This document shows positions 14,338 through 60,045 of a DNA stretch of 64,000 bases, piece by piece. Both the position numbers and the translations under genes were made by a program. Within the stretch, counting starts at the first letter, position 1, and each line of letters begins with the position of its first letter. The stretch comes from Candidatus Uhrbacteria bacterium. GTDB taxonomy: Bacteria > Patescibacteriota > Patescibacteriia > GWA2-47-26. The notes under the pieces were generated by a model that saw only the letters and a program-made list of their open reading frames with translations, made no database searches and was not told the origin of the DNA. Location of the stretch: contig JACPJN010000007.1 of assembly GCA_016187515.1 (NCBI GenBank), positions 228,778 to 292,777 of the forward strand, in the 5' to 3' direction.

Positions 14338-14453
14338 AGATGAGTGTAATTGACCTAATTAACCTAAGTGCTCTAATTGACCTAAACAATAACCAATATT
14401 GGGATTTGGGACTTGTTTAGAATAATTAGGTTAATTAGAGTAATTAAAAATTC
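14338..14453. repeat. AT-rich intergenic palindromic element, family R subtype 1
   Basis: CTAATTGACCTAAACAATAACCAATATTGGGATTTGGGACTTGTTTAGAATAATTAGGTTAATTAGAG. Arms pair around a central ATTGGGATTT core. Fills the whole ugd-like/ahcY intergenic gap. Confidence 0.75.
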
Positions 14454-15917
14454 TCAAGTACCTTCCTCCCATGAACTCAAATACTTTCTTTGCTCCTCGG
14501 TTAATTCATCTTTGCGCACCTCCATTGCCTCAAGCTGCAACGCGGCAATGTCGTCATCTACTCTGGATGGTAACACATAGACCTTTGGCTCGAGTTTCCC
14601 CAGGTTCTCCACAAGATACGCACAAGCCAAAGCTTGCCCGCAAAATGAAAGCGACATCACCTCTGAAGGATGACCTTCTGCCGCGGCCAAATTCACCAGC
14701 CGCCCTTCGCCGGCGACATACAACACGCGGTCATCCGTCATCGGTTCACGGTTCACGGTTTGTGTTGATTTACTGTGAACTGTCGACTGTGAACTGTCGA
14801 CTGGCAAAGTATATTCATCCAGCATCGTCCGCACCGTCCGCACACCCTTTGCCATCTCCCGCAGTCCTTTCAAATCAATCTCCGCGTCAAAATGTCCGGA
14901 ATTGGCCAGAATCGCGCCGGATTTCATTTTAGAAAAATGCTCTGGACGCAAAACATGTTTGTCACCCGTAACCGTAATAAAAATATCGCCAAGCGTGGCG
15001 GCTTCCGCAAGCGGCATCACCCGAAATCCATCCATCACGGCTTGTAGTGCGCGAAACGCGTCAACTTCACACACAATCACATTTGATCCCATGCCGCGCG
15101 CGCGCAAAGCCACGCCTTTGCCGCAGGAACCGTAACCACACACGACCACGGTTTTGCCCGCCCACAAAATATTGGTCGCCCGCGTAATCCCATCCAGCGT
15201 GGATTGCCCGGTGCCATAGTAATTGTCCATCAGATGTTTGGTCTTATTGTCATTCACTGCTACAACCGGGTATTTAAGCGCGCCGTCGCGCTCCATCGCC
15301 CGCAAGCGGATAAGGCCTGTTGTGGTTTCCTCGGTCCCGCCAATTAAATTCGCAATAAACTCCGGGTGTTTTTTGTGAATTTCACCAACTAAATCCCCGC
15401 CATCGTCAATGGTGATCAAATTTCTCCCACCCCTCCTAGCCTCCCCTCGGGTCCCGGCTGCGGCCGAGGATCCTCGATTCTCGAGAATCGGGACAGGGGA
15501 GGAAATTGATTGTTCTCCCCCTCTTAGAGGGGGAGATTCAGAGGGGGTCCGAACCTCTACTTTCATGAACTCAATCACCCGATTTAGAAAATCGTAGTAT
15601 TCCTCATTACTCTCGCCCTTATGTGCAAATACGGCCACGCCTTCCTCCGCGAGCGCCGCCGCCACATCATCTTGAGTGGATAATGGATTACATCCGGTAA
15701 TCGCAACCTCGGCCCCGCCAGAGCGAAGCGTGCGCACCAGCACTGCGGTTTCTTTGGTCACATGCAAGGCCATACCGACAGTCACACCCGCCAATGGTTT
15801 TTCGCGCGCAAACCGCTTTCGCACTTCCAAAAGCGCGCCCATTCTACGTTCGGCTAATTCAATCTGCAGCCGCCCTTGCGGCGCAAGCGAAATGTCTTTT
15901 ACCTTGTATTGTTCCAT
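14454..15917 (-). CDS. ahcY: adenosylhomocysteinase carrying two in-frame repeat-element insertions
   Basis: ORF 14454..15947; probable start MEQYKVKDISLAPQGR. Conserved AhcY blocks (GCNPLSTQDDVAAAL, NAD site VVVCGYGSCGKGVA, HPSEVMSLSF). Inserted peptides SESPPLRGGEQSISSP...GEARRGG and PVDSSQSTVHSKSTQTVNREPM coincide with DNA repeat elements. Confidence 0.9.
   Translation of the reverse strand: MEQYKVKDISLAPQGRLQIELAERRMGALLEVRKRFAREKPLAGVTVGMALHVTKETAVLVRTLRSGGAEVAITGCNPLSTQDDVAAALAEEGVAVFAHKGESNEEYYDFLNRVIEFMKVEVRTPSESPPLRGGEQSISSPVPILENRGSSAAAGTRGEARRGGRNLITIDDGGDLVGEIHKKHPEFIANLIGGTEETTTGLIRLRAMERDGALKYPVVAVNDNKTKHLMDNYYGTGQSTLDGITRATNILWAGKTVVVCGYGSCGKGVALRARGMGSNVIVCEVDAFRALQAVMDGFRVMPLAEAATLGDIFITVTGDKHVLRPEHFSKMKSGAILANSGHFDAEIDLKGLREMAKGVRTVRTMLDEYTLPVDSSQSTVHSKSTQTVNREPMTDDRVLYVAGEGRLVNLAAAEGHPSEVMSLSFCGQALACAYLVENLGKLEPKVYVLPSRVDDDIAALQLEAMEVRKDELTEEQRKYLSSWEEGT
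14742..14802. repeat. CTGTGAACT-type tandem/inverted repeat (family Q) in-frame in ahcY
   Basis: CGGTTCACGGTTCACGG...CTGTGAACTGTCGACTGTGAACTGTCGAC. Encodes PVDSSQSTVHSKSTQTV. Confidence 0.75.
15425..15552. repeat. family P palindromic element inserted in-frame in ahcY
   Basis: ...CGATTCTCGAGAATCG (perfect palindrome) ...CCCCCTCTTAGAGGGGGAGATTCAGAGGGGGTCC. Encodes SESPPLRGGE...RGEARRGG inside AhcY. Confidence 0.75.
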
Positions 15918-15962
15918 AGTAAATAGTGAAGAAAATAATCCTAACAAATTATATGCCGAGCG

Positions 15963-16736
15963 TCAAAGTTTTTGAGCAATGAATTGCGGGAATTTCAACA
16001 CCCGTGCCCCTTGGTCCGGGCGAATCAACAACGGCTCAACTTCTTTGGCCAGCGCTTTAAAATCAAGTTTTCCGCAATAATCATACACTTGTTTAATCAA
16101 TTTGGAAACTGTCAAACCCATGGCCGCTTTTACATAATCTTCACTGGGTTGTGTAATTCCATACAAAAAACTCACATCATAAAAATCGCGTCCTTTTGTC
16201 CGCTTACGCTGTAAAATCGTGATTAATTTCTGCGCTAGCAAAATATCTTCCGGATTTACTAGCAGATCATAAAACAGATCAAATTTGTTGATGGTATGCG
16301 CACGCGGCGTAAACACTTTCTTTTGCGCCATACTCTCCATTTTAATAAGAATCTTTTCGCTCGCGTGATCACTTATTTTATGCTCATGCAGTAGATGGGG
16401 AAATTTGATGTAGCAATGATACGCGCCTTTTTCTAAAAATCTAAATTCAACCGTAAGGCCCTTACGTCTCATGTCGTCTATTACCTGGTTAAGCATGGCT
16501 TGAAATGCCGAAAAAGAAAGTCCAAAATTATCAAAATCAAGATCTTCGGAAAAGCGATTTCCTTGATAACATATCCGAATTGAGGTTCCGCCCATAAAAC
16601 TTAATTGCTCACTGCCTTTCTGTTTATACAGCGAATCCAGCAGTTCATATTGGAGATATTCAACCAGGACGCGGCGAGGCGAAATAAACTCTTCGTTTTT
16701 TGTATAGTGATCTTTTAACTGCGTGAAGGTGAACAT
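15963..16736 (-). CDS. nucleotidyltransferase AbiEii/AbiGii toxin family protein
   Basis: 257 aa. GGTSIRICYQGNRFSEDLDFD matches the AbiEii hG[GS]...DhD nucleotidyltransferase motif. Overlaps the upstream antitoxin gene by 22 nt. Confidence 0.8.
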   Translation of the reverse strand: MFTFTQLKDHYTKNEEFISPRRVLVEYLQYELLDSLYKQKGSEQLSFMGGTSIRICYQGNRFSEDLDFDNFGLSFSAFQAMLNQVIDDMRRKGLTVEFRFLEKGAYHCYIKFPHLLHEHKISDHASEKILIKMESMAQKKVFTPRAHTINKFDLFYDLLVNPEDILLAQKLITILQRKRTKGRDFYDVSFLYGITQPSEDYVKAAMGLTVSKLIKQVYDYCGKLDFKALAKEVEPLLIRPDQGARVLKFPQFIAQKL

Positions 16737-18512: not shown

Positions 18513-19804
18513 AATTTTGAAATTAACCGCGTAAGATCCGCTGCGTAGGCCGGCGCGCCGGTGGCTCCGGGAGAGTTATAATTGAGGATGTGGAGCGAGC
18601 GCGGAGTTTGCGCTTCTACAACTTCCGGCACAAATCTGCCGTTGCGATCGATAAGCGAGGCGCGCACGCCGGCAGTGCCGCGCGCCACACAATCCGCCAC
18701 GCGAAGATCGGGCAAGAATTTCTGCACCCGCGCGACCATTGCGTCCTTTGATAAGGCGCTGCGCCACTCCTTACCGCACAAACGTAAAAATTCCGGATTG
18801 CGGAGTAATCGCAATTTGTTGGCCAGTGGTTTTTCAGTGAGCTTGCCAAGCACATTACCCACTCCGCGATAGGCATACGACCCAAACACCGGCACCGCGG
18901 ACGGACCAATTTCCACGCGCCCGTCCACGCGCACCACATAGTGCGGGTCAAGAAACGGAAAATCTGTGTGCCGTGGCACAGAGTACACATTACGCAATGC
19001 CAATCGTGCGCTCTCTCCTTCCACAATCAAATACTCCCCGCGAAAATTCAGATCCGCAAACTCTCGCGCCACTCCCATCAGGTGGGCGATCTTCAGCGCG
19101 GCTCCTCCGGCGCAATTCACCATATAGTGCGCTCGTAACCCCTCCTCGCCTCCCCTTACCCTAAGGGGAGGAACCTCGGCAAAATTCCCCCTCTTAAGGT
19201 AAGAGGGGGTAGGGGGAGTTATGAGTCGTTGATATAAAATATCCACTCCGTCCTTCTTCTCTACGATCTTTTTCACCTCACACCCAAACAAAAATTTCAC
19301 TCCTCTTTCTTCGGCATCATCCCGCAACGCTCGTGTGAATGCACCAAAATCTACGGCCGTATCTGTTGTGCAAAGTAAAGCACCTGCACACCAAGCGCTG
19401 GGTTCAATCTCGCGCACTTCTTCCGCACTCAAAAGCCGCACCTCGCTATCTCCCATCCCATTTTGAAGAGACCAAGCTTTATACTTCTTCAGCCGCGCGA
19501 GCTGCGCCTCATCAAGCGCCACCTCCAGCGTTCCCACCTCGCGCCAGGGCAAACCCTTGCGCGCCGCATACTCTTTCCAAAACTCGTACGACTCTTGCGC
19601 GCAGCGCGCAAACTTCCCCTTGCTGATCGGATCAAGATAAAACGGGCGGTGAATCACGCCCGTGTTTCTACTGCTGGTATGCCGCGCGACACCCTCTTCT
19701 TTTTCCACGACCACAATTCTCTCGCCTGGAATATGTTTGGACAACTGATAGGCAAGCGCTGTCCCCAAAATCCCCCCGCCAACAATAACAATATCATACT
19801 CCAT
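18509..19804 (-). CDS. FAD-dependent oxidoreductase (L-2-hydroxyglutarate oxidase/GlpA-like) with in-frame GC palindromic element insertion
   Basis: 431 aa. DIVIVGGGILGTALAYQL dinucleotide-binding motif. Inserted peptide TPPTPSYLKRGNFAEVPPLRVRGGEEG corresponds to the element at 19141..19226. Confidence 0.7.
   Translation of the reverse strand: MEYDIVIVGGGILGTALAYQLSKHIPGERIVVVEKEEGVARHTSSRNTGVIHRPFYLDPISKGKFARCAQESYEFWKEYAARKGLPWREVGTLEVALDEAQLARLKKYKAWSLQNGMGDSEVRLLSAEEVREIEPSAWCAGALLCTTDTAVDFGAFTRALRDDAEERGVKFLFGCEVKKIVEKKDGVDILYQRLITPPTPSYLKRGNFAEVPPLRVRGGEEGLRAHYMVNCAGGAALKIAHLMGVAREFADLNFRGEYLIVEGESARLALRNVYSVPRHTDFPFLDPHYVVRVDGRVEIGPSAVPVFGSYAYRGVGNVLGKLTEKPLANKLRLLRNPEFLRLCGKEWRSALSKDAMVARVQKFLPDLRVADCVARGTAGVRASLIDRNGRFVPEVVEAQTPRSLHILNYNSPGATGAPAYAADLTRLISKL
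19141..19226. repeat. family P palindromic element inserted in-frame in FAD oxidoreductase gene
   Basis: CTCCCCTTACCCTAAGGGGAG ... CCCCCTCTTAAGGTAAGAGGGGGTAGGGGGAGTTATGAG. Confidence 0.75.
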
Positions 19805-20753: not shown

Positions 20754-20892
20754 ATTTGAAAAATTCCAATAAACAAGTTACAGATTACAAACAAATCCAA
20801 AATCCCAATATTCAATGTCCAAACTTGTAATTTGGAGATTGTGATTTCCTTGTAATTTGGTGCTTGGGATTTGGAATTTAAATCTTGCCATT
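20754..20892. repeat. AT-rich intergenic palindromic element, family R subtype 2
   Basis: ACAAACAAATCCAAAATCCCAATATTC...CTTGTAATTTGGAGATTGTGATTTCCTTGTAATTTGGTGCTTGGGATTTGGAATTT. Confidence 0.75.
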
Positions 20893-21849
<957 letters not shown>

Positions 21850-21851
21850 AT

Positions 21852-21940
21852 TGGGTAAATCAGGTGAATCAAGTAAATCATGCAAGTCAAGCTCTTGATT
21901 TACTTATCTCGCTTGCTTTACTTGATTTACTTCAATTAAG
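21852..21940. repeat. AATCAAGTAAAT / ATTTACTTGATT hairpin element, family S
   Basis: GTGAATCAAGTAAATCATGCAAGTCAAGCTCTTGATTTACTTATCTCGCTTGCTTTACTTGATTTACTTC. Creates a spurious N-terminal ORF extension of the kinase gene. Confidence 0.75.
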
Positions 21941-22042
21941 GTCTTCCAACTGAAATATAAGTAAAGCCCAACTCCCGCATCTTTTTAGGATCAAGAGGAT
22001 TGTTGCCGTCCACGACCACGGGATTGCGCATGCGGGCTTTTT

Positions 22043-23590: not shown

Positions 23591-24979
23591 TCAAGGCCGG
23601 CCGACTGAAATGTATTGAAAACCCAGTAAACGCATCTTTTTTGCGTCAAGGAGATTGCGGCCGTCAAAAATAAACGGCTGGCGCATTTTTGTTTTCATTT
23701 CTGCCCACGGCAGATCGCGAAACTGCGGCCATTCGGTAAGCACAAGCACTGCATCGGCGCCTTCAGTGACTTCTTCGGGTGTTGGACATGTCACAAGCTC
23801 GGTGATCTCATGCCTTGCATTGGATTCTGCCTGATAATCAAATGCTTTTATTATCGCGCCTTCTTTCATGAGCAATCGTGTAATATCCAGAGCGGTTGAT
23901 TCCCGCACATCATCAGTATTATTTTTAAACGCCAGTCCCAGCACGCCAATCGTCTTGCCTTCCAGGGCACCAAGTATATCCCGCACACGGCGCACAAAGC
24001 GATGCCGCTGTTCCTGATTGACTTCGATCACGGCCTTGAGCAATTTAAAATCATAATCATGATTTAATGCGATATTGTGCAACGCCCGGGTATCTTTCGG
24101 AAAACACGATCCTGAATATCCTGTCCCGGCCTTGAGGAAGTGTGGGCCAATGCGGGGATCCATACCCATTCCGCGGGCTACTTCGTCTACATTCGCGCCG
24201 ACTTCGTCGCAGACATTGGCAATCTCATTGATAAAGGAAATTTTCGTGGCCAAAAACGCATTGCTGGCGTATTTAATCATTTCCGCAGTCGCAATATCCG
24301 TGACCACGCGCTCACCCGGCAATCCCTCATGCACTTTCAAAAGCGCGTCGCGCGCGCGATCCGAGTCCACCCCGATCACCACACGATCCGGATTCATGGT
24401 GTCATGCACGGCCGACCCTTCGCGCAAAAACTCCGGACAAGACGCCACGTCAAACTCAACCTGTGAACTGTGAACTGACGTCTGTGAACTAATCAATTTG
24501 CGCACTTTCTCCGCGGTCCCCACCGGAACCGTGCTTTTATCCGCGATAACTTTGTATCCCCCTCCCCTAACCCCTCCCACAAGGGGAGGGGGATTGCCGT
24601 TTACTTCCCCTCCCTCGATGGGAGGGGATTGAGGGGAGGGTGAGGGTCCCCAATTTTCCGCCACCTCACGCGCCGCGGCAAACACCTGGCTTAAATCCGC
24701 TTCGCCAGAAGGCAACGGCGGCGTGCCCACGCACAAGAAAATCACCTCGGCATTGGGCACGGCCTCGGCATACGACGTCGTGGGAATGAGCCGGCCGCTA
24801 ACCACGCCTTCGCGCACAAGTTCGGGCAGTCCGGGCTCATAAAACGGTACTTCTCCGCGACGGAGCTTCTTCACCTTGTCCGCATCTTTGCGCACGGCAT
24901 AAACCGTGTGCCCCAACTTGGCATACACTGCCGCAGAAGTAAGGCCAACGTAGCCCGCGCCGATAATCGCAATGCGCAT
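23591..24979 (-). CDS. ugd: UDP-glucose 6-dehydrogenase with two in-frame repeat insertions
   Basis: 462 aa. MRIAIIGAGYVGLTSAAVYAKLGH N-terminus and catalytic GGSCFPKD-like motif (GYSGSCFPKDTRAL). Inserts GPSPSPQSPPIEGGEVNGNPPPLVGGVRGGGYK (element 24556..24650) and SSQTSVHSSQ (24461..24490). Confidence 0.85.
   Translation of the reverse strand: MRIAIIGAGYVGLTSAAVYAKLGHTVYAVRKDADKVKKLRRGEVPFYEPGLPELVREGVVSGRLIPTTSYAEAVPNAEVIFLCVGTPPLPSGEADLSQVFAAAREVAENWGPSPSPQSPPIEGGEVNGNPPPLVGGVRGGGYKVIADKSTVPVGTAEKVRKLISSQTSVHSSQVEFDVASCPEFLREGSAVHDTMNPDRVVIGVDSDRARDALLKVHEGLPGERVVTDIATAEMIKYASNAFLATKISFINEIANVCDEVGANVDEVARGMGMDPRIGPHFLKAGTGYSGSCFPKDTRALHNIALNHDYDFKLLKAVIEVNQEQRHRFVRRVRDILGALEGKTIGVLGLAFKNNTDDVRESTALDITRLLMKEGAIIKAFDYQAESNARHEITELVTCPTPEEVTEGADAVLVLTEWPQFRDLPWAEMKTKMRQPFIFDGRNLLDAKKMRLLGFQYISVGRP
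24461..24490. repeat. family Q repeat in-frame in ugd
   Basis: CTGTGAACTGTGAACTGACGTCTGTGAACT. Encodes SSQTSVHSSQ. Confidence 0.75.
24556..24650. repeat. family P palindromic element inserted in-frame in ugd
   Basis: CCCCTCCCACAAGGGGAGGGG ... CCCCTCCCTCGATGGGAGGGGATTGAGGGGAGGGTGAGGGTCC. Confidence 0.75.
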
Positions 24980-24980
24980 A

Positions 24981-26660
24981 TTACCTAACCGCGTTACTTT
25001 GCTTACCCTCTTCTCGCATAATGGTTTCTATCTCGTCGTATTCCAGTTCTTCTTTCCGAATTAACTCTTGCGCAAAACGATCCAGTAGTTTCTCCTCTTT
25101 CTTCAGTAACTGCTCCACCGCCTGGAGGCAGTCCTGTAAAATTGCCTCGGTGTCGCGGTTGAGTTTCTCTTTTACCGATTCCGCGACTTTATCCTCGCTG
25201 GACTCACCCCGAAAACGCGCCTGCCCAACCAGCAGCTCATAGTCGCCAATCAGTCCCGACGGCCCCATCCCGTATTTCCAGACCATGTTGTGCGCCTGCG
25301 CCATCGCGTTGCGGAAGTCCTGGGCCACCCCGTCGGAAGTTGATTCAAATTTCAACTTTTCCGCCCCGTAACCCCCCAGCGCGACCTTCACGTTCGCTAA
25401 AATCCGGTCGCGGGAAGAAGTAAAGATTTCTTCGCGCGGCTGATGAAACACCATTCCTAAAGCGTCGCGGCGTGAAATGATCGAGGCCTTAAACACATCA
25501 TCTGTGGGATGCAAAAAGTAAGTCACGATCAAATGCCCGGACTCGTGATAGGCCACGCGCTTTTTCTCATCCGCGGTAAGCCGCCGGTGGTGTTTGAATC
25601 CCAGATCAATTCTCTCCATGGCTTCGGACATATCGCGCATCTCCAGGCGCTCCCGTTTATGCCGCGCGGCAATCAGCGCCGCCTCTTTCACCAGATTTTC
25701 AATATCCGCCGGGGACTTCCAAACCGCGCGCCGCGCTAACTTTCCCACGTCCACACTTTCCTCGTGCGCTACCTTTTTAAGATAATGCGCGAAAAGTTGC
25801 GCCCGATCTTCCAGCGTCGGCAGATCCACGTAAATTTTGCGATCAAACCGGCCCGGACGCAAAAGCGCGGCGTCCAGAGCGGACTCGGAGGCATTGGTGG
25901 CGCCAATTACAATCACATCCGCGCCTTTCTCTTGAATGCCATCCATCTCCACTAGCAGCTGATTGACGGTGTTATTCGCTTCGGTACGCGCGCCAAAGCC
26001 CAGGTCGGTCTTCCGCTCGGTTCCGACCGCGTCAAGCTCATCAATAAAAACAATGCAGGCCCCGTGCATTTGCGAAAGTTGGCGCGCCTGTTTAAACAAT
26101 TTGCGCACCCTGGAAGGCCCCACGCCGACAAAAATCTCCACAAATTCGGAGCCGGAAACCGAAATAAACGGAATGCCGGCCTCGGTCGCGATGGCTTTGG
26201 CCAAGTAGGTTTTTCCGCATCCGGGCGGGCCGGTCAAAAGAATGCCGCGCAAAATTTTACCGCCAATGCGCGCGGTCAGCGTCCTGTCCTTGAGCAATTC
26301 GACAACTTCCCACGCTTCCATCTTGGCCTCTTTCAACCCAATCACCTCCTCCCATTTTACATTTACAAATTCCGCCTTCACTTTGGACTTGCCCCATTTC
26401 ATGAATCCGCCGCCGTGATGCAGCCACCACAGTCCAATGATAAAAGTAGCGGCCGAAAGCGTTGACCACATCGGGACCGTAGAGAGTTGGGCCAGATAGC
26501 CCAGGCGCTGCAGTTCATCCAGTTTGCGGTAAATCACGAGCGGCTGGGCGATCGTCAAAATCCAAAAAATGATCGGCAGTACCGTTACGGCTAGAAATAT
26601 GCCGCCCACATATTTTCCCCAATGAAACCGAAAATGCCATTTTAGTTTGTTCCAGGACAT
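24981..26660 (-). CDS. FtsH-family AAA metalloprotease paralog (divergent N-terminus)
   Basis: 559 aa. Walker A GPPGCGKT, second region of homology, M41 zinc site AYHESGHLIV. N-terminal membrane region unlike canonical FtsH. Confidence 0.75.
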   Translation of the reverse strand: MSWNKLKWHFRFHWGKYVGGIFLAVTVLPIIFWILTIAQPLVIYRKLDELQRLGYLAQLSTVPMWSTLSAATFIIGLWWLHHGGGFMKWGKSKVKAEFVNVKWEEVIGLKEAKMEAWEVVELLKDRTLTARIGGKILRGILLTGPPGCGKTYLAKAIATEAGIPFISVSGSEFVEIFVGVGPSRVRKLFKQARQLSQMHGACIVFIDELDAVGTERKTDLGFGARTEANNTVNQLLVEMDGIQEKGADVIVIGATNASESALDAALLRPGRFDRKIYVDLPTLEDRAQLFAHYLKKVAHEESVDVGKLARRAVWKSPADIENLVKEAALIAARHKRERLEMRDMSEAMERIDLGFKHHRRLTADEKKRVAYHESGHLIVTYFLHPTDDVFKASIISRRDALGMVFHQPREEIFTSSRDRILANVKVALGGYGAEKLKFESTSDGVAQDFRNAMAQAHNMVWKYGMGPSGLIGDYELLVGQARFRGESSEDKVAESVKEKLNRDTEAILQDCLQAVEQLLKKEEKLLDRFAQELIRKEELEYDEIETIMREEGKQSNAVR

Positions 26661-26800
26661 AAGAAAAACAGGGAAAAATTCACCTAATTATCCTAATTGA
26701 CCTAATTATTCTAAACAATACCCAAACCCAAAATCCCAATTTTGGTGATTGGAAATTAGGATTTGTTTAGATCAATTAGAGTAATTAGGGCAATTAGAAA
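26661..26800. repeat. AT-rich intergenic palindromic element, family R subtype 1
   Basis: CACCTAATTATCCTAATTGACCTAATTATTCTAAACAATACCCAAACCCAAAATCCCAATTTTGGTGATTGGAAATTAGGATTTGTTTAGATCAATTAGAGTAATTAGGGCAATTAGAAATT. Abuts the hup stop and the FtsH-paralog start. Confidence 0.8.
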
Positions 26801-27079
26801 TTACGCGCGAAGCGCGTCTTTTAAGGTTTTCCCGGCTTTAAATTTGGGAGTTCTGACCGGGGGGATTTCGATTGGTGCTTTGGTCTGCGGATTAATTCCG
26901 GTTCTGCCCTTTCTCATCTTGGCCAAAAACGCGCCGAATCCGGAGAGCGTAACTTCGCCGCCGCCTTTAATCGTCTCGGTAATCACCCCGGTCATGGTCT
27001 CCAGAATCTCCAAAACCTTGGCTTTGGGCACGTCCGCGACCTTTTGAGAAATTACTTCCGCGAGTTCTACTTTGTTCAT
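26801..27079 (-). CDS. hup: HU family DNA-binding protein
   Basis: 92 aa. MNKVELAEVISQK...GFGAF...RTGINPQT matches the HU/IHF fold signature. Confidence 0.85.
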   Translation of the reverse strand: MNKVELAEVISQKVADVPKAKVLEILETMTGVITETIKGGGEVTLSGFGAFLAKMRKGRTGINPQTKAPIEIPPVRTPKFKAGKTLKDALRA

Positions 27080-27080
27080 A

Positions 27081-27170
27081 TTGGTGAGTTATTTAGTTAT
27101 TGGGTTATTAGTTATTAGTTATTAGTTATTTCTGCGCCAATTTTAATAACTTAATCACTTAATAACTTAA
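27081..27170. repeat. palindromic tandem heptamer element (GTTATTA)n / (AATAACTTAATCACTT)n
   Basis: GTTATTGGGTTATTAGTTATTAGTTATTAGTTATTtctgcgccaattttAATAACTTAATCACTTAATAACTTAATCACT, between ymdB stop and hup start. Confidence 0.8.
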
Positions 27171-28001: not shown

Positions 28002-28244
28002 AAGTAAATAAGTTGTAAGTAGTAAGTAGTAAGTAGTGGTAAGTTACTTTTGAATTTTCTTCCAGCCATTGATTAGTTTAGCAGTTTCTTCTGTAACTTG
28101 GTACACCTCCAATGTCAATTCATGAGCTCTCTGCCATGCAATAATTTCACGAAATGTCTTGACCAATATAACTTACAACTTACTCACTTACTCACTTACT
28201 CACTTACTCACTTACTCACTTACTCACTTACTCACTTACTCACT
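28002..28244. repeat. palindromic tandem octamer element: (GTAAGTAG)n ... (CTTACTCA)x9
   Basis: 28003-28050 GTAAGTAGTAAGTAGTAAGTAGTGGTAAGTTAC and 28161-28244 TAACTTACAACTTACTCA(CTTACTCA)n. The two blocks are reverse complements. Spans the whole rny-ymdB intergenic region and generates spurious ORF 28098..28349. Confidence 0.8.
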
Positions 28245-31331: not shown

Positions 31332-31337
31332 AAAAAT

Positions 31338-41877: not shown

Positions 41878-41886
41878 ATTTATGGA

Positions 41887-41970
41887 GTGAATCAAGTAAA
41901 TCAAGCGAGGCATGTAAATCAAGGGCCTGATTTACCTGATTTACCTGATTTACTTATCTTACTTAATTTA
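41887..41970. repeat. family S hairpin element
   Basis: GTGAATCAAGTAAATCAAGCGAGGCATGTAAATCAAGGGCCTGATTTACCTGATTTACCTGATTTACTTATCTTACTTAATTTAC. Confidence 0.75.
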
Positions 41971-41978
41971 CACCACCA

Positions 41979-43895: not shown

Positions 43896-43922
43896 GTGTT
43901 TTGTAGGTTAAGAACTAGGTAA

Positions 43923-43978
43923 AATAAGTAAAGCAAGCAGCTTAATTCACTTAATTTACTTAACCACTTGATTTACTG
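43923..43978. repeat. family S-related short element
   Basis: AATAAGTAAAGCAAGCAGCTTAATTCACTTAATTTACTTAACCACTTGATTTACTG, between rpsA start and ftsH stop. Confidence 0.55.
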
Positions 43979-43980
43979 TT

Positions 43981-46836: not shown

Positions 46837-47568
46837 GTGACTTGTCGACTAGCTAAAGATGCGCTACACTATCTTCATATGCTCCATCCCCATCATTATA
46901 CCCTTTCCTTACTTCAGCATCTGCTGGCTAAAGCCGACCATACTCTTTTTCCGCCGGACCGCTTGGCGGAGATGAAAAAAGAATACGCCCGGACCATGGG
47001 CGACCACGAGGTTCCCCAAGTGCAGGTTGAACAAATGGCCAGTAAGTTCGGGCGGGAAATTTGGCCTTACCACGAAGCCCTGGAAGAACTCTATCGCCGA
47101 CATGGCAAGAGTCAAGAAGAAGAGCGGGTGCGCCAAGAACTTAATCCGCAACTTAAAGAAAAATATGAGCGCTTCCTGGCCGGCGGCGGCAGTTTAAATG
47201 ATTTCCGCCGCGGCGCGGAGGTGGAGACGTATTTTACTCCGGAGGAAAAATTCGAACTCGGCTCCGCGGTAGTGGATGCTCATCACGCCGTATTGCAAGA
47301 AATCGCCTCCGGCTGCCGGCTGGATCTTCGACCAGAATGTGAAGAAGTCATCAACGACCATAAACAAAAAATCGAGCGCATCGAGAAAAAGCTCGTCATC
47401 CTAAAAAACCTGGCTTCCCGTTCGGAAAAATGGCGTCCGGAAATTGAAGACAAAGTAAAAACCTTGGAAGAGGCCTTTGGGTACCTGGAACGCACTTTTC
47501 ACGAATCCGATCTGGATGGCGCGATTGACTACTACGAAGGCGTGATTGAGAGTCCGGAATTTGGATAA
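46837..47568 (+). CDS. hypothetical protein
   Basis: 243 aa, helical, charged. No recognisable motif. Confidence 0.4.
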   Translation: MTCRLAKDALHYLHMLHPHHYTLSLLQHLLAKADHTLFPPDRLAEMKKEYARTMGDHEVPQVQVEQMASKFGREIWPYHEALEELYRRHGKSQEEERVRQELNPQLKEKYERFLAGGGSLNDFRRGAEVETYFTPEEKFELGSAVVDAHHAVLQEIASGCRLDLRPECEEVINDHKQKIERIEKKLVILKNLASRSEKWRPEIEDKVKTLEEAFGYLERTFHESDLDGAIDYYEGVIESPEFG

Positions 47569-47679
47569 ATCACAAATCACAAATCACAAACAAATTCAAA
47601 ATCACAATATCCAAACTTTGTAATTTGGAATTTGTAATTTCCTTGTAATTTGTTGCTTGAGATTTGGAATTTTCACCGC
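47569..47679. repeat. AT-rich intergenic palindromic element, family R subtype 2, with (AATCACA)n tandem arm
   Basis: AAATCACAAATCACAAATCACAAACAAATTCAAAATCACAATATCCAAACTTTGTAATTTGGAATTTGTAATTTCCTTGTAATTTGTTGCTTGAGATTTGGAATTTT. Confidence 0.8.
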
Positions 47680-50159: not shown

Positions 50160-50283
50160 AATTTCTAATTCACCTAATTAACCTAATTATTCTAAACAAT
50201 GTCCAATTCTCAAGCCCCAATTTTGGTCATTGGATATTGGGATTTATTTAGGTCAATTAGAGCAGTTAGAATAATTAGAAATT
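50160..50283. repeat. AT-rich intergenic palindromic element, family R subtype 1
   Basis: AATTTCTAATTCACCTAATTAACCTAATTATTCTAAACAAT...ATTGGGATTTATTTAGGTCAATTAGAGCAGTTAGAATAATTAGAAATT. Ends immediately at the livF ATG. Confidence 0.8.
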
Positions 50284-54216: not shown

Positions 54217-54313
54217 ATCATGCCTGTCTGACAAATCGGGTATGGCCTGAATATAGGCGAGCCCAGCGAGTTGTAGTCAAAAGCCCATATTCTGTATTCT
54301 GTGGCCCATATTC

Positions 54314-54349
54314 TGTCCCAAAATCTCACGGCCGTGAGATTTTGGGACA
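54314..54349. repeat. 36-nt perfect palindrome TGTCCCAAAATCTCACGGCCGTGAGATTTTGGGACA (copy 1)
   Basis: Identical copy at 60673..60708. Both lie just downstream of plus-strand genes. Preceded by a direct repeat GCCCATATTCTGT x2. Confidence 0.8.
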
Positions 54350-54669
54350 ATTTTGAAATGTGTAAAAGTACCGGTTCACTTATGCAACACGAAGACTAAG
54401 CTTCCGGAAAAGTATGGCTGTTGGCAATACAATGCGCGGGACAAGCATCTTTATTATTACCCAAATTTTAAATCACAGACATCGAGGTAACCCTCTCTTC
54501 CGTCATTTCGACCGAGGATCCGACCGCGGTCGGATCGAAGTGGAGAAATCCCACCCCCTGCCATAATGCAAGAGGAATTTTGCAAGCAGTAACAACCCGC
54601 CGCGTCTGCCGGTGCCACAGCACCGAAGCGAAGCGGAGGCATGTGCGTCGGTGGGAGAGGCGGGTCTTT

Positions 54670-54698
54670 TTGACAAACCCGCGATTTTGTGATATCAT
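54670..54698 (+). promoter_or_regulatory. consensus sigma70 promoter giving a leaderless transcript (cassette 2)
   Basis: TTGACA-17nt-TATCAT with TG extension (tgTGaTATCAT). ATG at 54709. Confidence 0.6.
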
Positions 54699-54708
54699 AT
54701 TGTGTAGT

Positions 54709-55029
54709 ATGAAGACCAAACTTCCCAAATCCCTCTACCGTTATTTTTGGGATATTGAACCGGAGAAACTTGACGTGCGCCAATACTCCACCTATGTAAT
54801 TTCACGATTGTTTGAGTACGGTGATCTCAAGTCGATTCAATGGATGCGTAAGACATACCGCACACCGACACTCCGTGCTGCCCTGACCCGACGAGGTCTT
54901 TCACTTAGATCCCGGCACTATTTTGCCCTCCTGTTTGATCAAAAACTTCATAAAATTTTATGCACCACGAAACCATCGAAAAGAAAACTCGCGCTGCTCT
55001 CGAGCTTTTGGGATCGTCGCGACTCCTAA
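54709..55029 (+). CDS. small AbiEi-like wHTH protein (candidate antitoxin), cassette 2
   Basis: ORF 54580..55029, trimmed to MKTKLPKSLYRYFWDIEPEKLDVRQ... directly after the promoter. Its 3' end overlaps the NTase start by about 70 nt (possibly a frameshifted or extended tail). Confidence 0.45.
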   Translation: MKTKLPKSLYRYFWDIEPEKLDVRQYSTYVISRLFEYGDLKSIQWMRKTYRTPTLRAALTRRGLSLRSRHYFALLFDQKLHKILCTTKPSKRKLALLSSFWDRRDS

Positions 55030-55857: not shown

Positions 55858-55959
55858 CTATTCGGCTCTTTTCAATACTCTCTCAAATCCCTGCGACCGC
55901 TCCGGCGGTCTTTTTTTATTTCGAGCAATTGACCTGATTGACAGGACATGATACAGTAC

Positions 55960-56050
55960 TGTGTACGAATTACGAATCTTGTCCGAATGTTACGAATACA
56001 TTGATTAATGCAAATTCGTAGTATTCGCAGCGTCATTCGTAATTCGTATA
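55960..56050. repeat. long imperfect palindrome of TACGAAT / ATTCGTA heptamer repeats in the infB 5' region
   Basis: gtgTACGAATTACGAATcttgtccgaatgtTACGAATacattgattaatgcaaATTCGTAgtattcgcagcgtcATTCGTAATTCGTAtac. Also a 10-nt perfect palindrome ACAGTACTGT at 55953-55962. Confidence 0.7.
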
Positions 56051-56054
56051 CAAT

Positions 56055-59000
56055 ATGAACGTTACTGAACTCGCTCGTCGGCTTAAAGTGTCTCCGCAAG
56101 AGCTTCGGGAAATGCTCCCGGCGCTTGGTTTTGATATTGGCATGCGCGCGGTTAAAGTTGACGATCGGACGGCCTGGCGCATTATTGAGCAGTGGCCGCA
56201 ATTGCGCCGCCAATGGCAGACCCTGAAGCAAAAAGAAGACGTGGCCAAAGTCGCCGAGGTGGCCAAGGCCGCCCAGGAGGTAGAGCTTCCCGCGATGATG
56301 ACTGTCCGCGAATATGCCGCCTATCTGGGACTCCCGATTGCCCGAGTGATCTCCGAACTGATGAAAAACGGGATTTTGGCGGCCATGAATGAACGCCTGG
56401 ACTTTACAACGGCTTCCATCATCGCGCAGGATTTGGGCTTCAAGATCAAAGAAAAAACCAAACCAACCTCCATCGAGGAAGAGGTAATCTCCGATGTAAT
56501 CCGTGAGCGGCTCGGTCAAGAGACCGCCGAGCAGCTTAAAGAGCGTCCGCCGGTAGTGGTCGTTATGGGCCATGTTGATCACGGCAAGTGTATTACCGGC
56601 GATACTGAAATTGTGTTGGGGAATGGTGAATTAAAAACGGCTCAGGCATTTTGGGAGGAAGAAACTGCCACGCAATCTCCAATTGCTTCACCTGATGGTG
56701 AAGGTGAATTTGTTGCGCCTCGCTCAAATATCAGCACCATGAGTTATGACCCAGACAGCCATACCATGAAAGCTTCTAAAATTGAGGCGCTGTGGAGGAT
56801 GCCAGCGCCTCAAGCGCTTACTGAAATTAGGCTGCGCTCGGGTGATAAAGTAACGACCACGCCAGAGCACCCCTTCTTTGTGACAGACCTTTCGGGCGAC
56901 ATCAGGCAAGTACCAGCCCAAAATATCTCTGAGGGGCAGTTTGTGATTATTCCTCAAAAATTACCCACGCACAATACTCTCGAAAAATTAGCTCATGAAA
57001 TCATAGAAAGACTTGGCAAGAGCAAAGATTTACTTATTCTTCTTCACAAAACACGGGGTAAAGACTTTCTCACGCGCCTGGAATCAGCCAATAAACAAGA
57101 ATTGTTACGCCAAGGTATACTTTCTACAAAACCACGTTCAAAACAGTATGGACTAAGGAGATTGCGCGCCAGGGATTATATTCTTCTTGGTCGTAAGTGG
57201 CGCTACTGCGACTATGAACTGTGGGAAAGTGTTGAAGCCATAAAACATGCTTCAGAAAAACAAAGAGCATCTCACAAGAGCTTCTTTATACGCTTTCCTC
57301 AACCCAGTGATGACTTACGACAACTCGGATATATTATGGGATGCCTGGCTGGTGATGGTCATATTCCAACAATGCAACTTTCCAATAACGACGGTGATAT
57401 TCAAGAAGCCTATAAGGAAGCGCTGGAAACAATCTTTGGCATCACGACTACCAAATACTCCTACGCAGGCGCGTGTGATACTATCGTCACAACTGGCGGC
57501 GAATCTTTAGCTCGATTCATGTTCGAGATAGCGGGCTTTCCCAGAAAGCAAAAAAGCGCTACTATCACCCTCCCTGTAATCGCACAAATAAATTCGGATA
57601 TCTTTCGCGGCTTCATCGAAGGGTGGTTCGATACTGACGGATATGTATCACCGTTTAATTGGTGGGTAGAAATCACCAGCAAAAGTCACGCGCTGGTACA
57701 ACAATGCGCCACACTCTTACTGCAGGATGAAATTCATAGTGTGATTGCTGAAAAGAAGGGGTTTTTTACCTTGCGGATTGCCAACGAACCTTATCTTTCC
57801 AAGTTTGCCTCTGTCTATCACCCTTGCTGCATGAGAAAAGTCTCCAGATTGGCAGATGCCGTGCACCATGCGGGCACGAGCCGTATTTTTGATCTGACGC
57901 CACTCTCCGGGGGTAGTCTTTTATCTCAAATCAACGTACGAGGGGGTAATAAGACGGTGCCTTTCTTAAGTCGCTATCGAGATTATAGTCAACTGTCACG
58001 GCCATTTTTGCAAGGCTTATTGCCCAACGTCACTCCTCAGAGTGTCGCGGTACTGGACAGAATTAAACCCTGGCTGACAAGCGAGATAAGTTTAGTTCCT
58101 GTCATATCAGTCAGACAGGTGCCGCCCGGTGATGCTTTTGTCTATGATTTCACCGTACATAAAACTCATACCTTTATTGGAAATAGGATTGTACTCCATA
58201 ACACCAAATTGCTCGATGCCATTCGCAAAACTAATGTCGTGGCTACGGAAGCCGGCGGAATTACCCAGCATATCGGCGCTTATCAAACCGTCCGGCACAA
58301 CCGCAAAATTACCTTCATTGATACCCCCGGACACGAGGCCTTTACCACCATGCGCAGCCGCGGGGCGCGGGTGGCGGATGTCGCTATTTTAGTGGTGGCG
58401 GCCGACGATGGGGTCCAGCCGCAAACCGTGGAAGCGCTAAACATCATCAACGCCGCGAAAGTTCCGTTTGTGGTCGCCGTGAATAAAATGGACAAACCGG
58501 AGGCCAGCGCAGACAAAGTAAAACGCGAACTTTCGGAAAAAGGAGTAATCCCGGAGGATTGGGGCGGCAAAACTCCTTTCGCACCCATCTCGGCGAAATC
58601 CGGCCTGGGGATTGACGCGCTTCTGGATGTCATCCTCTTGGTCGCCGACCTGGAGAAAGAAAAAATCACGGCCAATCCGGAGGCGCGAGCGCTCGGCACC
58701 ATTATTGAGGCCCACGTTTCCCCGGGCGAGGGCGCGGTCGCGACTATGCTGGTCCAAAACGGAACTTTAAAAGTCGGCGATGCGCTGGCTGTGGGCCACT
58801 CACTCTACGGCAAAGTCCGCGCGATGAAGGCCTGGGACGGCGCGCTGGTTAAAACCGCCCCGCCCGGAATGCCGGTGCGCATCCTGGGGTTCAAGGTTGC
58901 TCCGGAAGTCGGAGACATCGCGGAGGTGCCGGAAAATCCCAAACTGCTCGAACTTAAAAAAGCCCGTCCAACTTTTGAAAAACTGGTGATTAGTCCTTTC

Positions 59001-59651
59001 AACACCCGGACGGAAGAAGAAATTAAGGCCCAAACCCTGATTAATGTGGTAATCAAGACCGACGTGCTTGGCTCGCTGGAGGCCATCCTGGCGAAATTGG
59101 AGCAACTGCAGACCCCGGAGGTCGCGGTAAAAGTCGTGGCTAAAGGACTGGGTAACATTACGGAAGCCGAGATTCTCCAGGCCGAGTCCTCCAAAGCCAT
59201 TGTCTATGGCTTTCAGGTGATCGCCCCGCCGGCCGTCCTGGAACTCGCGCGAGAAAAAAGCGTGGAGATTCAAATGTATAAAATTATTTACGAACTGCTT
59301 GACGACATTAAAGGCCGCTTGGAGGTGCTGCTGAAACCGGAAATTCTGCGCATTGCTTTGGGGAAACTAAAAGTCCTGGCGGTGTTTCGAAAAGAGCGGC
59401 ATCATGCTATTATAGGAGGACGGGTGGAGGAGGGCAAAGCCGTTAAAAAAGCCAGGGTAACGATCATGCGCGCGGGCGCCGAGGCCGGAGGCGGCGAGAT
59501 TACGGAATTGCAATCCGCTAAACAGGCGGTCTTGGAAGTGCCCGGCGGTTCGCAGTGCGGTCTGAAAATCAACACCAAAGCTGAAATTCAGGAAGGGGAC
59601 GTGCTCGAGCTGTACCGCGAAGAGAAAAAAGAGCGCAAACTTGCGCTTTGA
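56055..59651 (+). CDS. infB: translation initiation factor IF-2 precursor interrupted by an intein in the GTPase P-loop
   Basis: 1198 aa. G1 motif GHVDHGK split after K178 by CITGDTEIVL...FIGNRIVLHN, then TKLLDAIRKTNV resumes IF-2. Downstream G motifs DTPGHEAF and NKMDK. C-terminal IF-2 domains present. Extein about 660 aa. Confidence 0.9.
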   Translation: MNVTELARRLKVSPQELREMLPALGFDIGMRAVKVDDRTAWRIIEQWPQLRRQWQTLKQKEDVAKVAEVAKAAQEVELPAMMTVREYAAYLGLPIARVISELMKNGILAAMNERLDFTTASIIAQDLGFKIKEKTKPTSIEEEVISDVIRERLGQETAEQLKERPPVVVVMGHVDHGKCITGDTEIVLGNGELKTAQAFWEEETATQSPIASPDGEGEFVAPRSNISTMSYDPDSHTMKASKIEALWRMPAPQALTEIRLRSGDKVTTTPEHPFFVTDLSGDIRQVPAQNISEGQFVIIPQKLPTHNTLEKLAHEIIERLGKSKDLLILLHKTRGKDFLTRLESANKQELLRQGILSTKPRSKQYGLRRLRARDYILLGRKWRYCDYELWESVEAIKHASEKQRASHKSFFIRFPQPSDDLRQLGYIMGCLAGDGHIPTMQLSNNDGDIQEAYKEALETIFGITTTKYSYAGACDTIVTTGGESLARFMFEIAGFPRKQKSATITLPVIAQINSDIFRGFIEGWFDTDGYVSPFNWWVEITSKSHALVQQCATLLLQDEIHSVIAEKKGFFTLRIANEPYLSKFASVYHPCCMRKVSRLADAVHHAGTSRIFDLTPLSGGSLLSQINVRGGNKTVPFLSRYRDYSQLSRPFLQGLLPNVTPQSVAVLDRIKPWLTSEISLVPVISVRQVPPGDAFVYDFTVHKTHTFIGNRIVLHNTKLLDAIRKTNVVATEAGGITQHIGAYQTVRHNRKITFIDTPGHEAFTTMRSRGARVADVAILVVAADDGVQPQTVEALNIINAAKVPFVVAVNKMDKPEASADKVKRELSEKGVIPEDWGGKTPFAPISAKSGLGIDALLDVILLVADLEKEKITANPEARALGTIIEAHVSPGEGAVATMLVQNGTLKVGDALAVGHSLYGKVRAMKAWDGALVKTAPPGMPVRILGFKVAPEVGDIAEVPENPKLLELKKARPTFEKLVISPFNTRTEEEIKAQTLINVVIKTDVLGSLEAILAKLEQLQTPEVAVKVVAKGLGNITEAEILQAESSKAIVYGFQVIAPPAVLELAREKSVEIQMYKIIYELLDDIKGRLEVLLKPEILRIALGKLKVLAVFRKERHHAIIGGRVEEGKAVKKARVTIMRAGAEAGGGEITELQSAKQAVLEVPGGSQCGLKINTKAEIQEGDVLELYREEKKERKLAL
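56589..58202 (+). mobile_element. intein (538 aa) with double-motif LAGLIDADG homing endonuclease
   Basis: Begins with Cys (block A CITGDTEIVLGNG), block B TTPEHPFFV, ends VLHN before extein +1 Thr. LAGLIDADG motifs YIMGCLAGDGHI and GFIEGWFDTDGYV. Confidence 0.85.
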
Positions 59652-59683
59652 AATTTCTTTAGATATTTTCAAATCTAGCTAGT

Positions 59684-59941
59684 ATGACCATTCCGCTTTG
59701 GTTCATCCTTGTCCTCTGGGGAATCTTTATCGGCTTTACCGTACTTTTATCACTGGTCAATCTTTTTCATATCCTGCATTACGGCTTTTGGACTTTCAAG
59801 TCCGCGCTGTTTTCGCTCTTTTATTACGGAGCTGTAATCATTATTCTGTATTGGGCTTGGACCGAGCTCGGCAGTTTTAATTGGAATCAACCGCTCGTTA
59901 CGTTTGGCATACCGGCTTTTAGCATACCCGCTTCTTTATGA
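59684..59941 (+). CDS. small hydrophobic membrane protein
   Basis: 85 aa, three predicted TM helices (WFILVLWGIFIGFTVLLSLV...). Confidence 0.4.
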   Translation: MTIPLWFILVLWGIFIGFTVLLSLVNLFHILHYGFWTFKSALFSLFYYGAVIIILYWAWTELGSFNWNQPLVTFGIPAFSIPASL

Positions 59942-60045
59942 GTAAATCAAGTAAATAAGGTAAATCAAGCTCTTGATTTACTTGCCCCGTAGTAGAGCGA
60001 AGCTTCACTACAGGGCTTGCCTCGCTTGATTTACTTGCTTTACTT
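59942..60045. repeat. family S hairpin element with nested GC hairpin
   Basis: GTAAATCAAGTAAATAAGGTAAATCAAGCTCTTGATTTACTTGCCCCGTAGTAGAGCGAAGCTTCACTACAGGGCTTGCCTCGCTTGATTTACTTGCTTTACTTC. Confidence 0.75.

Follow-up and report, generated by a model that had tools for sequence, protein, structure and literature searches.

What are the AT-rich hairpins that occupy so many of the spaces between genes in a 64-kb stretch of the Candidatus Uhrbacteria contig JACPJN010000007.1 (hereafter the window, meaning all 64,000 nucleotides [nt] that were analyzed), and where did they come from? A preliminary description of this DNA sorted eleven of them into three families, regarded them as a repeat system specific to the lineage, and supposed that they supply the terminators and promoters of neighboring genes. 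Our analysis indicates that they are probably something else: derivatives, resembling MITEs (miniature inverted-repeat transposable elements) and devoid of open reading frames (ORFs), of small selfish cassettes of the intervening sequence (IVS) type that encode a four-helix-bundle protein and are widespread in the candidate phyla radiation (CPR).

The window contains the genes RNase Y-YmdB-HU-FtsH, liv ABC transporter genes, an IF-2 gene with a LAGLIDADG intein, and a type IV pilus ATPase, a set that is indicative of a Patescibacteria/CPR genome. Coding DNA in the window is ~50% GC, whereas the hairpin elements range from 23 to 40%. All eleven elements of the preliminary description were found where it had placed them, and a twelfth of the same build, T, was absent from its list; summed, the twelve amount to 1,455 nt, or 2.3% of the window. 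Their common build is (unit)n - center - (reverse-complement unit)n with tandem units of 7 to 9 nt, and Tandem Repeats Finder reports arrays of period 7 to 9 in every arm of the listed elements. The three copies on which the argument turns belong to the type that we call R1. They are given here, and the other nine further below, with no strand assigned; z is the folding score of the sense-strand RNA against dinucleotide shuffles.

14338..14453: R1a, a miniature R1 hairpin from the AdoHcyase stop to the UDP-glucose dehydrogenase ATG, built as (CTAATTNNN)n - CTAAACAA - heptamers - loop - TTGTTTAG - (NNNAATTAG)n; z -4.7.
26661..26800: R1b, a miniature R1 hairpin from the hup stop to the start of the FtsH paralogue; z -5.3.
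50160..50283: R1c, a miniature R1 hairpin from the livG stop to the livF ATG; z -4.7.

The origin of R1 became apparent from its relatives in other genomes. A census with a 20-base R1 signature against a one-genome-per-species contig collection returned at least 117 loci, 80 of which were listed. The distance between the two arms is 33 to 143 nt in all but eight of 87 arm pairs. Pairs of arms 395 to 1,240 nt apart, together with several lone arms, enclose or adjoin an intact ORF of ~120 codons, and an intact four-helix-bundle gene lies between or beside the arms in nine of the R1-signature loci. We recognize L014, L077, L049, L082, L074, L030, L063, L031, L252, L254, and L257 as full R1 cassettes. 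The encoded protein belongs to PF05635, "23S rRNA-intervening sequence protein" (E = 1.7e-13), and to TIGR02436, "four helix bundle protein" (E = 8e-21), and its nearest solved structure is 2rld. The ATG of the gene follows the left junction immediately (CTAAACA|ATGACCAAT...), so that the inner heptamers of the miniatures correspond to the first codons of the four-helix-bundle gene (MTN..NPN).

The miniatures of the window align with such a cassette from which the ORF has been removed. R1b matches positions 0 to 79 plus 439 to 507 of the L014 cassette, which comes from Doudnabacteria, with the virtual deletion junction at AAAATCCCAAT|TTTGGTCATTGG. Identity to the ORF-deleted L014 cassette is 85% for R1a, 81% for R1b, and 84% for R1c, and R1c retains CTAAACAATG, the start-codon context of the cassette. 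The association also holds in the reverse direction: all three loci chosen through a search with the four-helix-bundle protein alone (P0235, labeled Omnitrophica; P0187, Levybacteria; and P0132) have R1 arms on both sides, the gene lying after ...CTAATT...CTAAACA|ATG and before ...TTTAG(NNNAATTAG)n. R1 miniatures derive from the four-helix-bundle cassette.

The protein subfamily is very large and unusually conserved, with at least 7,994 clusters (90% identity) at E ≤ 1e-5, the top 120 of which are 73 to 83% identical. Few of these name their source; those that do trace to several CPR lineages and to a single Omnitrophica-labeled metagenome-assembled genome (MAG). Many of the matches are on short contigs, which is what breakage of assemblies at the arms would lead one to expect. 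Three cassettes have unusual arrangements. At L030 (5231-5900, labeled Chlorobiota), two complete, directly oriented miniature hairpins flank the gene; at L082 (4135-4730), a left arm is followed by the gene and then by a whole hairpin; and at L049 (2792-4086), the arms hold an extra ORF of 227 codons without a Pfam match.

The distribution of R1 speaks against the supposition that these elements are lineage-specific, as does the occurrence of S-type hairpins with the same loop in other groundwater metagenome contigs. With 20 specified bases, we estimate that ~1 match would be expected by chance; the loci found, at least 117, are mostly in CPR MAGs and span ~17 named CPR candidate phyla or classes. 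At least 50 of the 80 listed loci are from MAGs named as CPR lineages, among them Saccharibacteria, Doudna-, Zambryski-, Uhr-, Woese-, Falkow-, Magasanik-, Morani-, Jackson-, Terry-, Lipton-, and Peribacteria, WWE3, and Paceibacterota. Across loci the architecture is preserved as AATT-(NNNCTAATT)3-5-NNN-CTAAACAA-(NNCCAAT-type heptamers)-loop-(ATTGGNN heptamers)-TT(A/G/T)TTTAG-(NNNAATTAG)3-5, and in CPR loci the copies usually sit 0 to 11 nt past the upstream stop and 5 to 21 nt before the next start. One MAG, BP7.bin63, accounts for at least nine of the 80 listed loci; because the copies compared there are near-identical, we take this to suggest that R1 was amplified within that genome. As R1 is a gene-less miniature of a cassette found across many CPR lineages, the elements look like DNA that is both selfish and mobile rather than like a lineage-specific control system.

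Some R1 loci carry other labels. About 11 of the 80 listed are assigned to Bacteroidales, Chlorobiota, Chlamydiota, or "Gammaproteobacteria," and signatures also occur in MAGs labeled Omnitrophica and Pseudomonadales. Such occurrences could reflect misbinning or real spread beyond the CPR; at least one of the loci so labeled, L026, beside the C-terminal part of a tRNA-synthetase-like gene, looks like a CPR contig. In a 5.3-Mb Bacteroidales chromosome (OY820914.1, L059), three R1-type right arms stand in tandem at ~4560-4790. A phage vector was considered as well, but only two viral contigs, both in IMG/VR (L130 and L131), bear the signature, and either could be a CPR phage or a misclassified contig. 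R1 was also considered as an insertion within rRNA genes, a candidate that failed: the only copy near rRNA (L019) lies ~420 nt upstream of the 23S 5' end.

The remaining elements of the window are as follows.

20754..20892: R2a, inverted heptamer arrays of the AAATCNC / GNGATTT type, PfkB stop to epimerase ATG; z -2.1.
47569..47679: R2b, left arm (AAATCAC)x6, between a stop codon (47566-47568) and the true livH ATG (47680); z -2.2.
21850..21940: S-a, inverted 9-mers (GTAAATCAA)n / (TTGATTTAC)n, reaching up to the true PfkB ATG at 21849(-); z -4.4.
41878..41978: S-b, of the S family, from the FtsH stop (41979) to the true ATG at 41877(-); z -4.3.
43896..43980 (core 43923-43978): S-c, a degenerate S copy, from the stop of the S1-domain gene to the FtsH ATG; z -1.5.
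59942..60052: S-d, another S copy, which runs up to the true ATG, 60053(+); z -5.9.
27080..27170: P1, a hairpin of (AGTTATT)n ... (TTAATAAC)n, ymdB stop to hup ATG; z -2.6.
28002..28244: P2, arms of (GTAAGTA)n ... (ACTTACTC)x8.5 around ~140 nt, rny stop to ymdB ATG; z -5.6.
55952..56054: T, an inverted-array hairpin of (TACGAAT)n, upstream stop to infB ATG; z -6.6.
28044..28166, minus strand: within P2, a four-helix-bundle remnant, an internally deleted 40-codon ORF, MVKTFREIIAWQRAHELTLEVYQVTEE|TAKLINGWKKIQK.

The claim that each element fills the whole gap from stop to start proved nearly right: with corrected starts, the elements lie 0 to 10 nt from the next start, but S-a shares its gap with a separate GC-rich hairpin at 21941-22042. 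A further GC-rich hairpin (CCCCGTAGTAGAGCGAAGCTTCACTACAGGG) is nested within S-d at ~59985-60015; this nesting suggests that elements insert into one another.

R2, P1, and P2 are likely of the same cassette origin as R1. At L052, a second subtype of the four-helix-bundle gene (39% identical) is flanked by R2-type heptamer arms, to which R2a and R2b are 73 and 82% identical in what is low-complexity sequence. At L252 (750-1091), a third subtype is flanked by (CAATAAC)n / (GTTATTG)n, the unit type of P1. P2, the arms of which have unequal periods of 7 and 8 nt, is the only element in the window to keep a four-helix-bundle remnant; R1, R2, S, P1, and T are ORF-less. In the remnant, the first 27 residues of a PF05635-type protein are fused to the last 13, and its N terminus matches positions 2 to 27 of three models in the same register (PF05635, E = 0.004; NF008911, E = 0.001; NF008912, E = 0.033), all below the curated cutoffs because only 40 residues are left. 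R1, R2, P1, and P2 can each be connected with subtypes of a single PF05635 cassette type. They are therefore better described as variants of one kind of element than as independent systems, and the original division into three families is not supported. S and T would fall in the same class by their architecture. The groundwater metagenome contigs L139, L248, L227, L151, and L134 yielded true S hairpins that have the AAGCTCTT loop and are closely followed by an ATG; these are the ~5 true hairpins among at least 120 metagenome matches to the S pattern, most of which are plain tandem or coding repeats. Arrays of (TACGAAT)n occur in the CPR loci L063, L064, and L091, and (AGTTAAT)n, too, forms arrays at CPR loci outside the window.

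Recurrence within the window, which the preliminary description had made a test of its proposal, is far above chance. The R1 signature (CTAATTNNNCTAATTNNNCTAAACAA, with ≤2 mismatches) is present in six of the six arms of the three R1 copies against 0.00 expected, and all 13 window matches to the S unit pair (GTAAATCAAGTAAATCAAG, with ≤3 mismatches) fall in the four S elements against 0.02 expected. R1b and R1c are 82% identical over 123 nt, and the arms of R2a and R2b are 84 to 91% identical. Most of the elements also fold, as predicted, into long hairpins with interruptions: R1a to R1c, S-a, S-b, S-d, and P2 have sense-RNA z scores of -4.3 to -5.9, while R2a, R2b, P1, and S-c are weaker at -1.5 to -2.6, R2a and P1 folding better on the other strand.

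The R1 stem has a peculiar geometry. The invariant part of each arm is the hexamer CTAATT/AATTAG, which recurs at 9-nt spacing and is separated by variable 3-nt spacers. Across the loci L007 to L123 and the window, only 10 mirrored spacers are identical against 20.7 ± 4.1 expected, and each forms 0.78 Watson-Crick pairs against 1.29 ± 0.08 expected. Because mirrored spacers are thus less complementary than chance, the stem formed by the mirrored arms is a ladder of 6-bp helices parted by small internal loops. The anticomplementarity could stem from inherited asymmetry, from long perfect palindromes or double-stranded RNA being avoided, or from a protein-binding array. Strand-specific selection on RNA was considered and rejected: oppositions of the G-U and A-C types are equally frequent in R1 arms (85 versus 87), and folding energies do not differ between sense and antisense.

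A comparison of orthologous sites places the elements in time relative to the operon that holds them. The order rny-ymdB-hup-ftsH is conserved in relatives, and the lengths of its three spacers (rny-ymdB, ymdB-hup, and hup-ftsH, in that order) are as follows.

Window: 243, 91, and 140 nt.
L261 (YmdB 75% identical): 1, 26, and 2 nt.
L127 (YmdB 73% identical): 2, 6, and 4 nt.
L126 (YmdB 69% identical): 52, 7, and 1 nt.

The sites occupied in the window are thus empty (1 to 26 nt) in L261 and L127, which means that the elements are not an ancestral part of the operon and that the operon does not require them. L124 and L128 have other hairpins at these sites, among them (GTAGTAT)n and heptamer hairpins of the GTCA type. 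Compared with window positions 24300 to 28260, six independent Logan assemblies of short reads (L001 to L006) are 100% identical to the window, so no strain polymorphism was seen among these contigs of the same population, and all six end in the (ACTTACTC)n arm of P2. Repeat arms fragment assemblies.

Do the hairpins serve their host? They might be regulatory punctuation, acting in the manner of repetitive extragenic palindromes (REPs) and bacterial interspersed mosaic elements (BIMEs) as terminators, attenuators, sites of mRNA stabilization or processing, or the 5' untranslated region and promoter of the next gene. Their position exactly between a stop and the next start, their significant folding, the short runs of T that follow R1b and R2a on the sense strand, and the ATG 3 to 10 nt beyond the end of every S copy all favor such a role, and exaptation of repeats is well known for REP/BIME. 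Yet none of the elements qualified in a scan of the window for a GC-rich stem followed by a T tract, while canonical GC-rich terminators occur elsewhere in it (e.g., 31223-31337 and 39032-39147), and promoter-like matches at the elements are at chance level. The neighbors of R1 are co-directional in 57 of 70 cases against a background of 75%, with no enrichment of convergent pairs, and among 58 copies between co-directional genes the sense strand folds more stably in 27 and the antisense strand in 31 (P = 0.66). Several elements, moreover, sit within operons where relatives have spacers of 1 to 26 nt, or between livG and livF, and full-length copies have their own gene. The data give no support to the supposition that the hairpins exist to punctuate transcription, and we regard a regulatory origin as quite unlikely; a secondary, exapted RNA role in processing or regulation may nevertheless have been acquired.

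Two further accounts bear on the repeated units themselves. The arrays could have arisen where they stand, by replication slippage of tandem units and hairpin-templated strand switching, so that the families would be convergent products of low complexity. Units do differ between elements, the two arms of P2 have periods of 7 and 8 nt, copy numbers vary, and from one relative to another the same site can hold a different hairpin; heptamer slippage is a recognized source of intergenic arrays in Xanthomonas and Nostoc (PMC4692102). R1, however, is a defined asymmetric sequence of more than 100 nt that is conserved across CPR classes and 81 to 85% identical to the ends of cassettes from a different candidate phylum, and the AAGCTCTT loop is common to the S copies of the window and a copy in another metagenome. 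Slippage may change arm length but leaves dispersal unexplained, and a purely local origin is therefore very improbable in our estimation. Alternatively, the 9-bp-spaced CTAATT units, inverted and numbering three to five per arm, would be sites for a DNA- or RNA-binding protein, with the pentameric four-helix-bundle protein or a host factor as candidate binder and hairpin potential only secondary. The invariance of the hexamer, set against spacers that vary and are less complementary than chance, favors such an array, and its build recalls the ends of transposons such as Tn7 and Mu, which have several subterminal binding sites. Against this, the other element families have unrelated units, and the anticomplementarity could follow equally from inherited asymmetry or from selection against long perfect palindromes; we give this idea, too, little credence.

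We therefore return to the derivation from selfish IVS-type cassettes. Under it, spread would take place at the level of DNA, the elements entering the very short, AT-rich gaps between genes in compact CPR operons and being retained there because no other targets are tolerated. They would be co-transcribed with their neighbors, the RNA forming stems of 6-bp helices interrupted by small loops, and by analogy with rRNA IVSs the stem might be cut by RNase III. Such a cut would release the mRNA of the enclosed ORF in full copies, and at miniatures it would merely split the operon transcript. Several observations weigh against this interpretation. The window holds no intact four-helix-bundle gene, and no known transposase, REP-associated tyrosine transposase (RAYT), or reverse transcriptase was found in the cassettes or among the ~40 window ORFs scanned; we know of no catalytic activity of the four-helix-bundle protein. 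The links of R2 and P1 to cassettes depend on low-complexity similarity. A gene-bearing copy of S or T was sought among the metagenome matches to the S pattern and the loci examined, and none was found; none of the true S hairpins is accompanied by a four-helix-bundle gene. Target-site duplications were looked for at the R1 ends and none was recognizable, the AATT...AATT termini being ambiguous. The relatives with empty sites are only ~70 to 75% identical in protein, and so no precise insertion or excision event was seen.

A bolder form of the same idea is that the PF05635 protein and the tandem-oligomer hairpin arms together make up a previously unrecognized autonomous mobile unit. The pentameric protein would recognize the three to five repeated units of each arm, as a DNA hairpin or as RNA, and would recruit host machinery: RNase III, a hairpin pathway of the replication fork, or a resident reverse transcriptase of the type found in diversity-generating retroelements (DGRs). 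The element would thereby be copied into new AT-rich spacers and rRNA helices, and the gene-less hairpins would be its nonautonomous parasites. We consider this rather unlikely, but if true it would account both for how rRNA intervening sequences originated, which has been an open question for ~35 years, and for what a very large protein family of unknown function does.

The repeats also account for the apparent N-terminal extensions of several genes. The ORF starts at 21885, 41922, and 60017, which had been described as annotated starts artificially extended into repeats, are each the first TTG of a mechanically called ORF (such ORFs begin at the first ATG, GTG, or TTG) and lie within repeat arms; the real starts are the ATGs at 21849(-), 41877(-), and 60053(+), just beyond the respective S elements. 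A fourth ORF, beginning at 47650, is likewise extended, its real start being the ATG at 47680. The extensions are thus real, and it is the word "annotated" that was wrong, for they are products of mechanical ORF calling. The comparison with homologue N termini that had been proposed bears this out for PfkB, the homologues of which begin past the repeat. All ten aligned homologues lack the 12-residue extension, which is therefore an ORF-calling artifact; they start at, or one residue before, MILISGS/KILVSGS, and none starts in the repeat. Among them is MBI2552462.1, the 318-residue NCBI entry from the same Candidatus Uhrbacteria genome, to which the PfkB of the window is 100% identical. For PfkB at least, the extension is not an error of public annotation.

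Other repeats are interspersed with these hairpins. A family of GC-rich palindromes (TCCCCCTCTTAAGGTAAGAGGGGG...) occurs both between genes and in frame inside them, at 27540-27570 (in ymdB), 19186-19216, 24556-24594, 29812-29842, 19133-19168, and 452-487. The ymdB copy encodes a 10-residue insertion, SPPPPLNLRG, that is absent from five of six aligned homologues; these in-frame palindromes resemble Rickettsia palindromic elements. An array of (AGTTCAC/AGTCGAC)n runs in frame through three unrelated enzymes, AdoHcyase, PfkB kinase, and UDP-glucose dehydrogenase (14766-14811, 21454-21485, and 24461-24492), encoding peptides like SSQSTVHSSQ, and the PfkB array maps to a loop found to be hypervariable when homologues are aligned. 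Further heptamer arrays lie within ORFs at 21130-21161, 21584-21614, and 36988-37017. A perfect 42-nt palindrome (ATTCTGTCCCAAAATCTCACGGCCGTGAGATTTTGGGACAAT) has two 100% identical copies, at 54310-54351 and 60671-60712, each between oppositely oriented ORFs in a greedy ORF model; one neighbor, 54457-54783(-), has no Pfam match, so that the convergent arrangement is only putative. It forms a separate repeat family and may act as a bidirectional terminator. Beside tRNA-Leu (35760-35845), which was the only hit of an Rfam search of the window, the region 35911-36121 contains 41 nt perfectly duplicated in tandem (36015-36097) and bracketed by 29-nt inverted repeats, a third copy of the arm lying at 40879-40907; the fold of the region is very strong, with a z score of -8.4.

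Among the genes, that for IF-2 (56055-59651; 1,198 residues in total) is interrupted by the intein with its LAGLIDADG homing-endonuclease domain, and AbiEii-type nucleotidyltransferase genes of type IV toxin-antitoxin systems occur three times in 64 kb of a small genome (15963-16736, 52050-52679, and 54960-55574). The heptamer repeats raised the possibility of a cyanobacterial origin of this DNA, which was rejected: the HIP1 sequence (GCGATCGC) is at chance frequency, and the RNase Y/YmdB synteny and best matches are to Candidatus Uhrbacteria.

Within the literature searched, we found no prior description of intergenic repeats or MITEs in CPR, of PF05635 mobility, or of PF05635 cassettes in protein-coding operons; the function of the PF05635 protein and the mobility of IVSs are still described as unknown (PMC4990558). 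The results presented here give a concrete origin for repeats that fill CPR spacers, break short-read assemblies, and mislead the calling of start codons. They take the "rRNA intervening sequence" cassette beyond rRNA, as a gene-plus-hairpin unit with gene-less miniatures in protein-coding operons across the CPR, and they supply a simple DNA marker for R1-type elements, namely CTAATT at 9-nt spacing beside CTAAACAA. With thousands of natural comparisons among full, decayed, and empty sites, both the function of PF05635 and the mobility of IVSs become addressable.

How do these elements compare with systems already known? The arrays called TIGR (tandem interspaced guide RNA) were considered and set aside: they have 36-nt units with two 8- to 12-nt spacers beside a Nop-domain Tas gene, in CPR and phages (PMC12045711), whereas the elements described here have 7- to 9-nt units with one to three variable bases, are dispersed, and lack a Tas gene. 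As the preliminary description suggested, they are dispersed, MITE-like intergenic hairpin DNA; its further likening of them to REP/BIME does not hold on grounds of size, composition, and build, nor was any RAYT-type gene found among the ~40 window ORFs scanned. REPs are GC-rich imperfect palindromes of 20 to 40 nt mobilized by a Y1 RAYT. Like REPs, BIMEs, and REPINs, the elements are intergenic palindromic repeats that can be co-transcribed and are sometimes exapted, but they measure 85 to 240 nt, are ~28% GC, and consist of tandem units.

Heptanucleotide tandem repeats are also known from cyanobacteria, where they are called STRR. Intergenic arrays of the heptamer GGGAATC are known from Xanthomonas at ~70 convergent pairs; the Xanthomonas and cyanobacterial arrays resemble ours in being intergenic 7-mers, often in inverted pairs, near the upstream ORF and mostly between co-directional genes (PMC4692102). 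They differ in having other units in other phyla and in being G-rich and quadruplex-forming where ours are AT-rich, and the passages considered report no link to a PF05635 cassette.

The PF05635 family links the elements to two other systems. [quoted passage not shown] Reports describe DGRs as common in CPR; beside the cassettes examined, we saw neither a reverse transcriptase nor a template or variable repeat.

The likeness to MITEs such as Correia, ERIC, Nezha, and RUP is close. The elements are small, noncoding, multicopy, and intergenic, have inverted ends, are related by internal deletion to a longer gene-bearing element, and are present or absent at orthologous sites, as seen in relatives with ~70 to 75% protein identity. 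An internal-deletion derivative sharing its ends with the longer form was found for R1 only; the corresponding evidence is suggestive for R2 and P1, and P2 holds a remnant. They differ from MITEs in having ends built of tandem oligomers and a gene-bearing partner that encodes only a four-helix-bundle protein and no recognized transposase. A target-site duplication was not recognizable, no direct repeat being evident beyond the AATT termini, at which the boundaries are ambiguous.

The nearest parallel is the rRNA IVS. Carriers of IVSs with the S23p/PF05635 gene include Coxiella, Leptospira, Brucella, and Haemophilus, and ORF-less IVSs are found in Salmonella. The Coxiella IVS has a 28-bp terminal inverted-repeat stem that is cut by RNase III, a decaying S23p (PF05635) ORF in its loop, and tandem heptamers (GACAGAT) in strain-variable number directly upstream of the S23p ATG; its origin is unclear according to its authors (PMC4990558). 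In CPR rRNA genes, 23S_rRNA_IVP ORFs have been reported, as have numerous short insertions at IVS sites that lack an ORF (PMC11270868). In our elements we likewise find, in full R1 cassettes, a PF05635/TIGR02436 protein in the loop and terminal inverted repeats forming a long stem, with tandem heptamers right upstream of the ORF start. ORF decay, ORF-less versions, and a sporadic distribution that suggests horizontal transfer are further points in common (PMC4990558, PMC11270868). The differences are of location and of build: IVSs lie in rRNA helices, but every copy in the window lies in a spacer between protein-coding genes, and the arms are three to five tandem 7- to 9-mers with a conserved CTAATT core rather than a unique inverted repeat. 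The miniature forms are, in addition, multicopy within one genome. Judged by their sequences, the elements thus appear to share every structural feature of IVSs except the rRNA location, and to add to them a multicopy miniature form.

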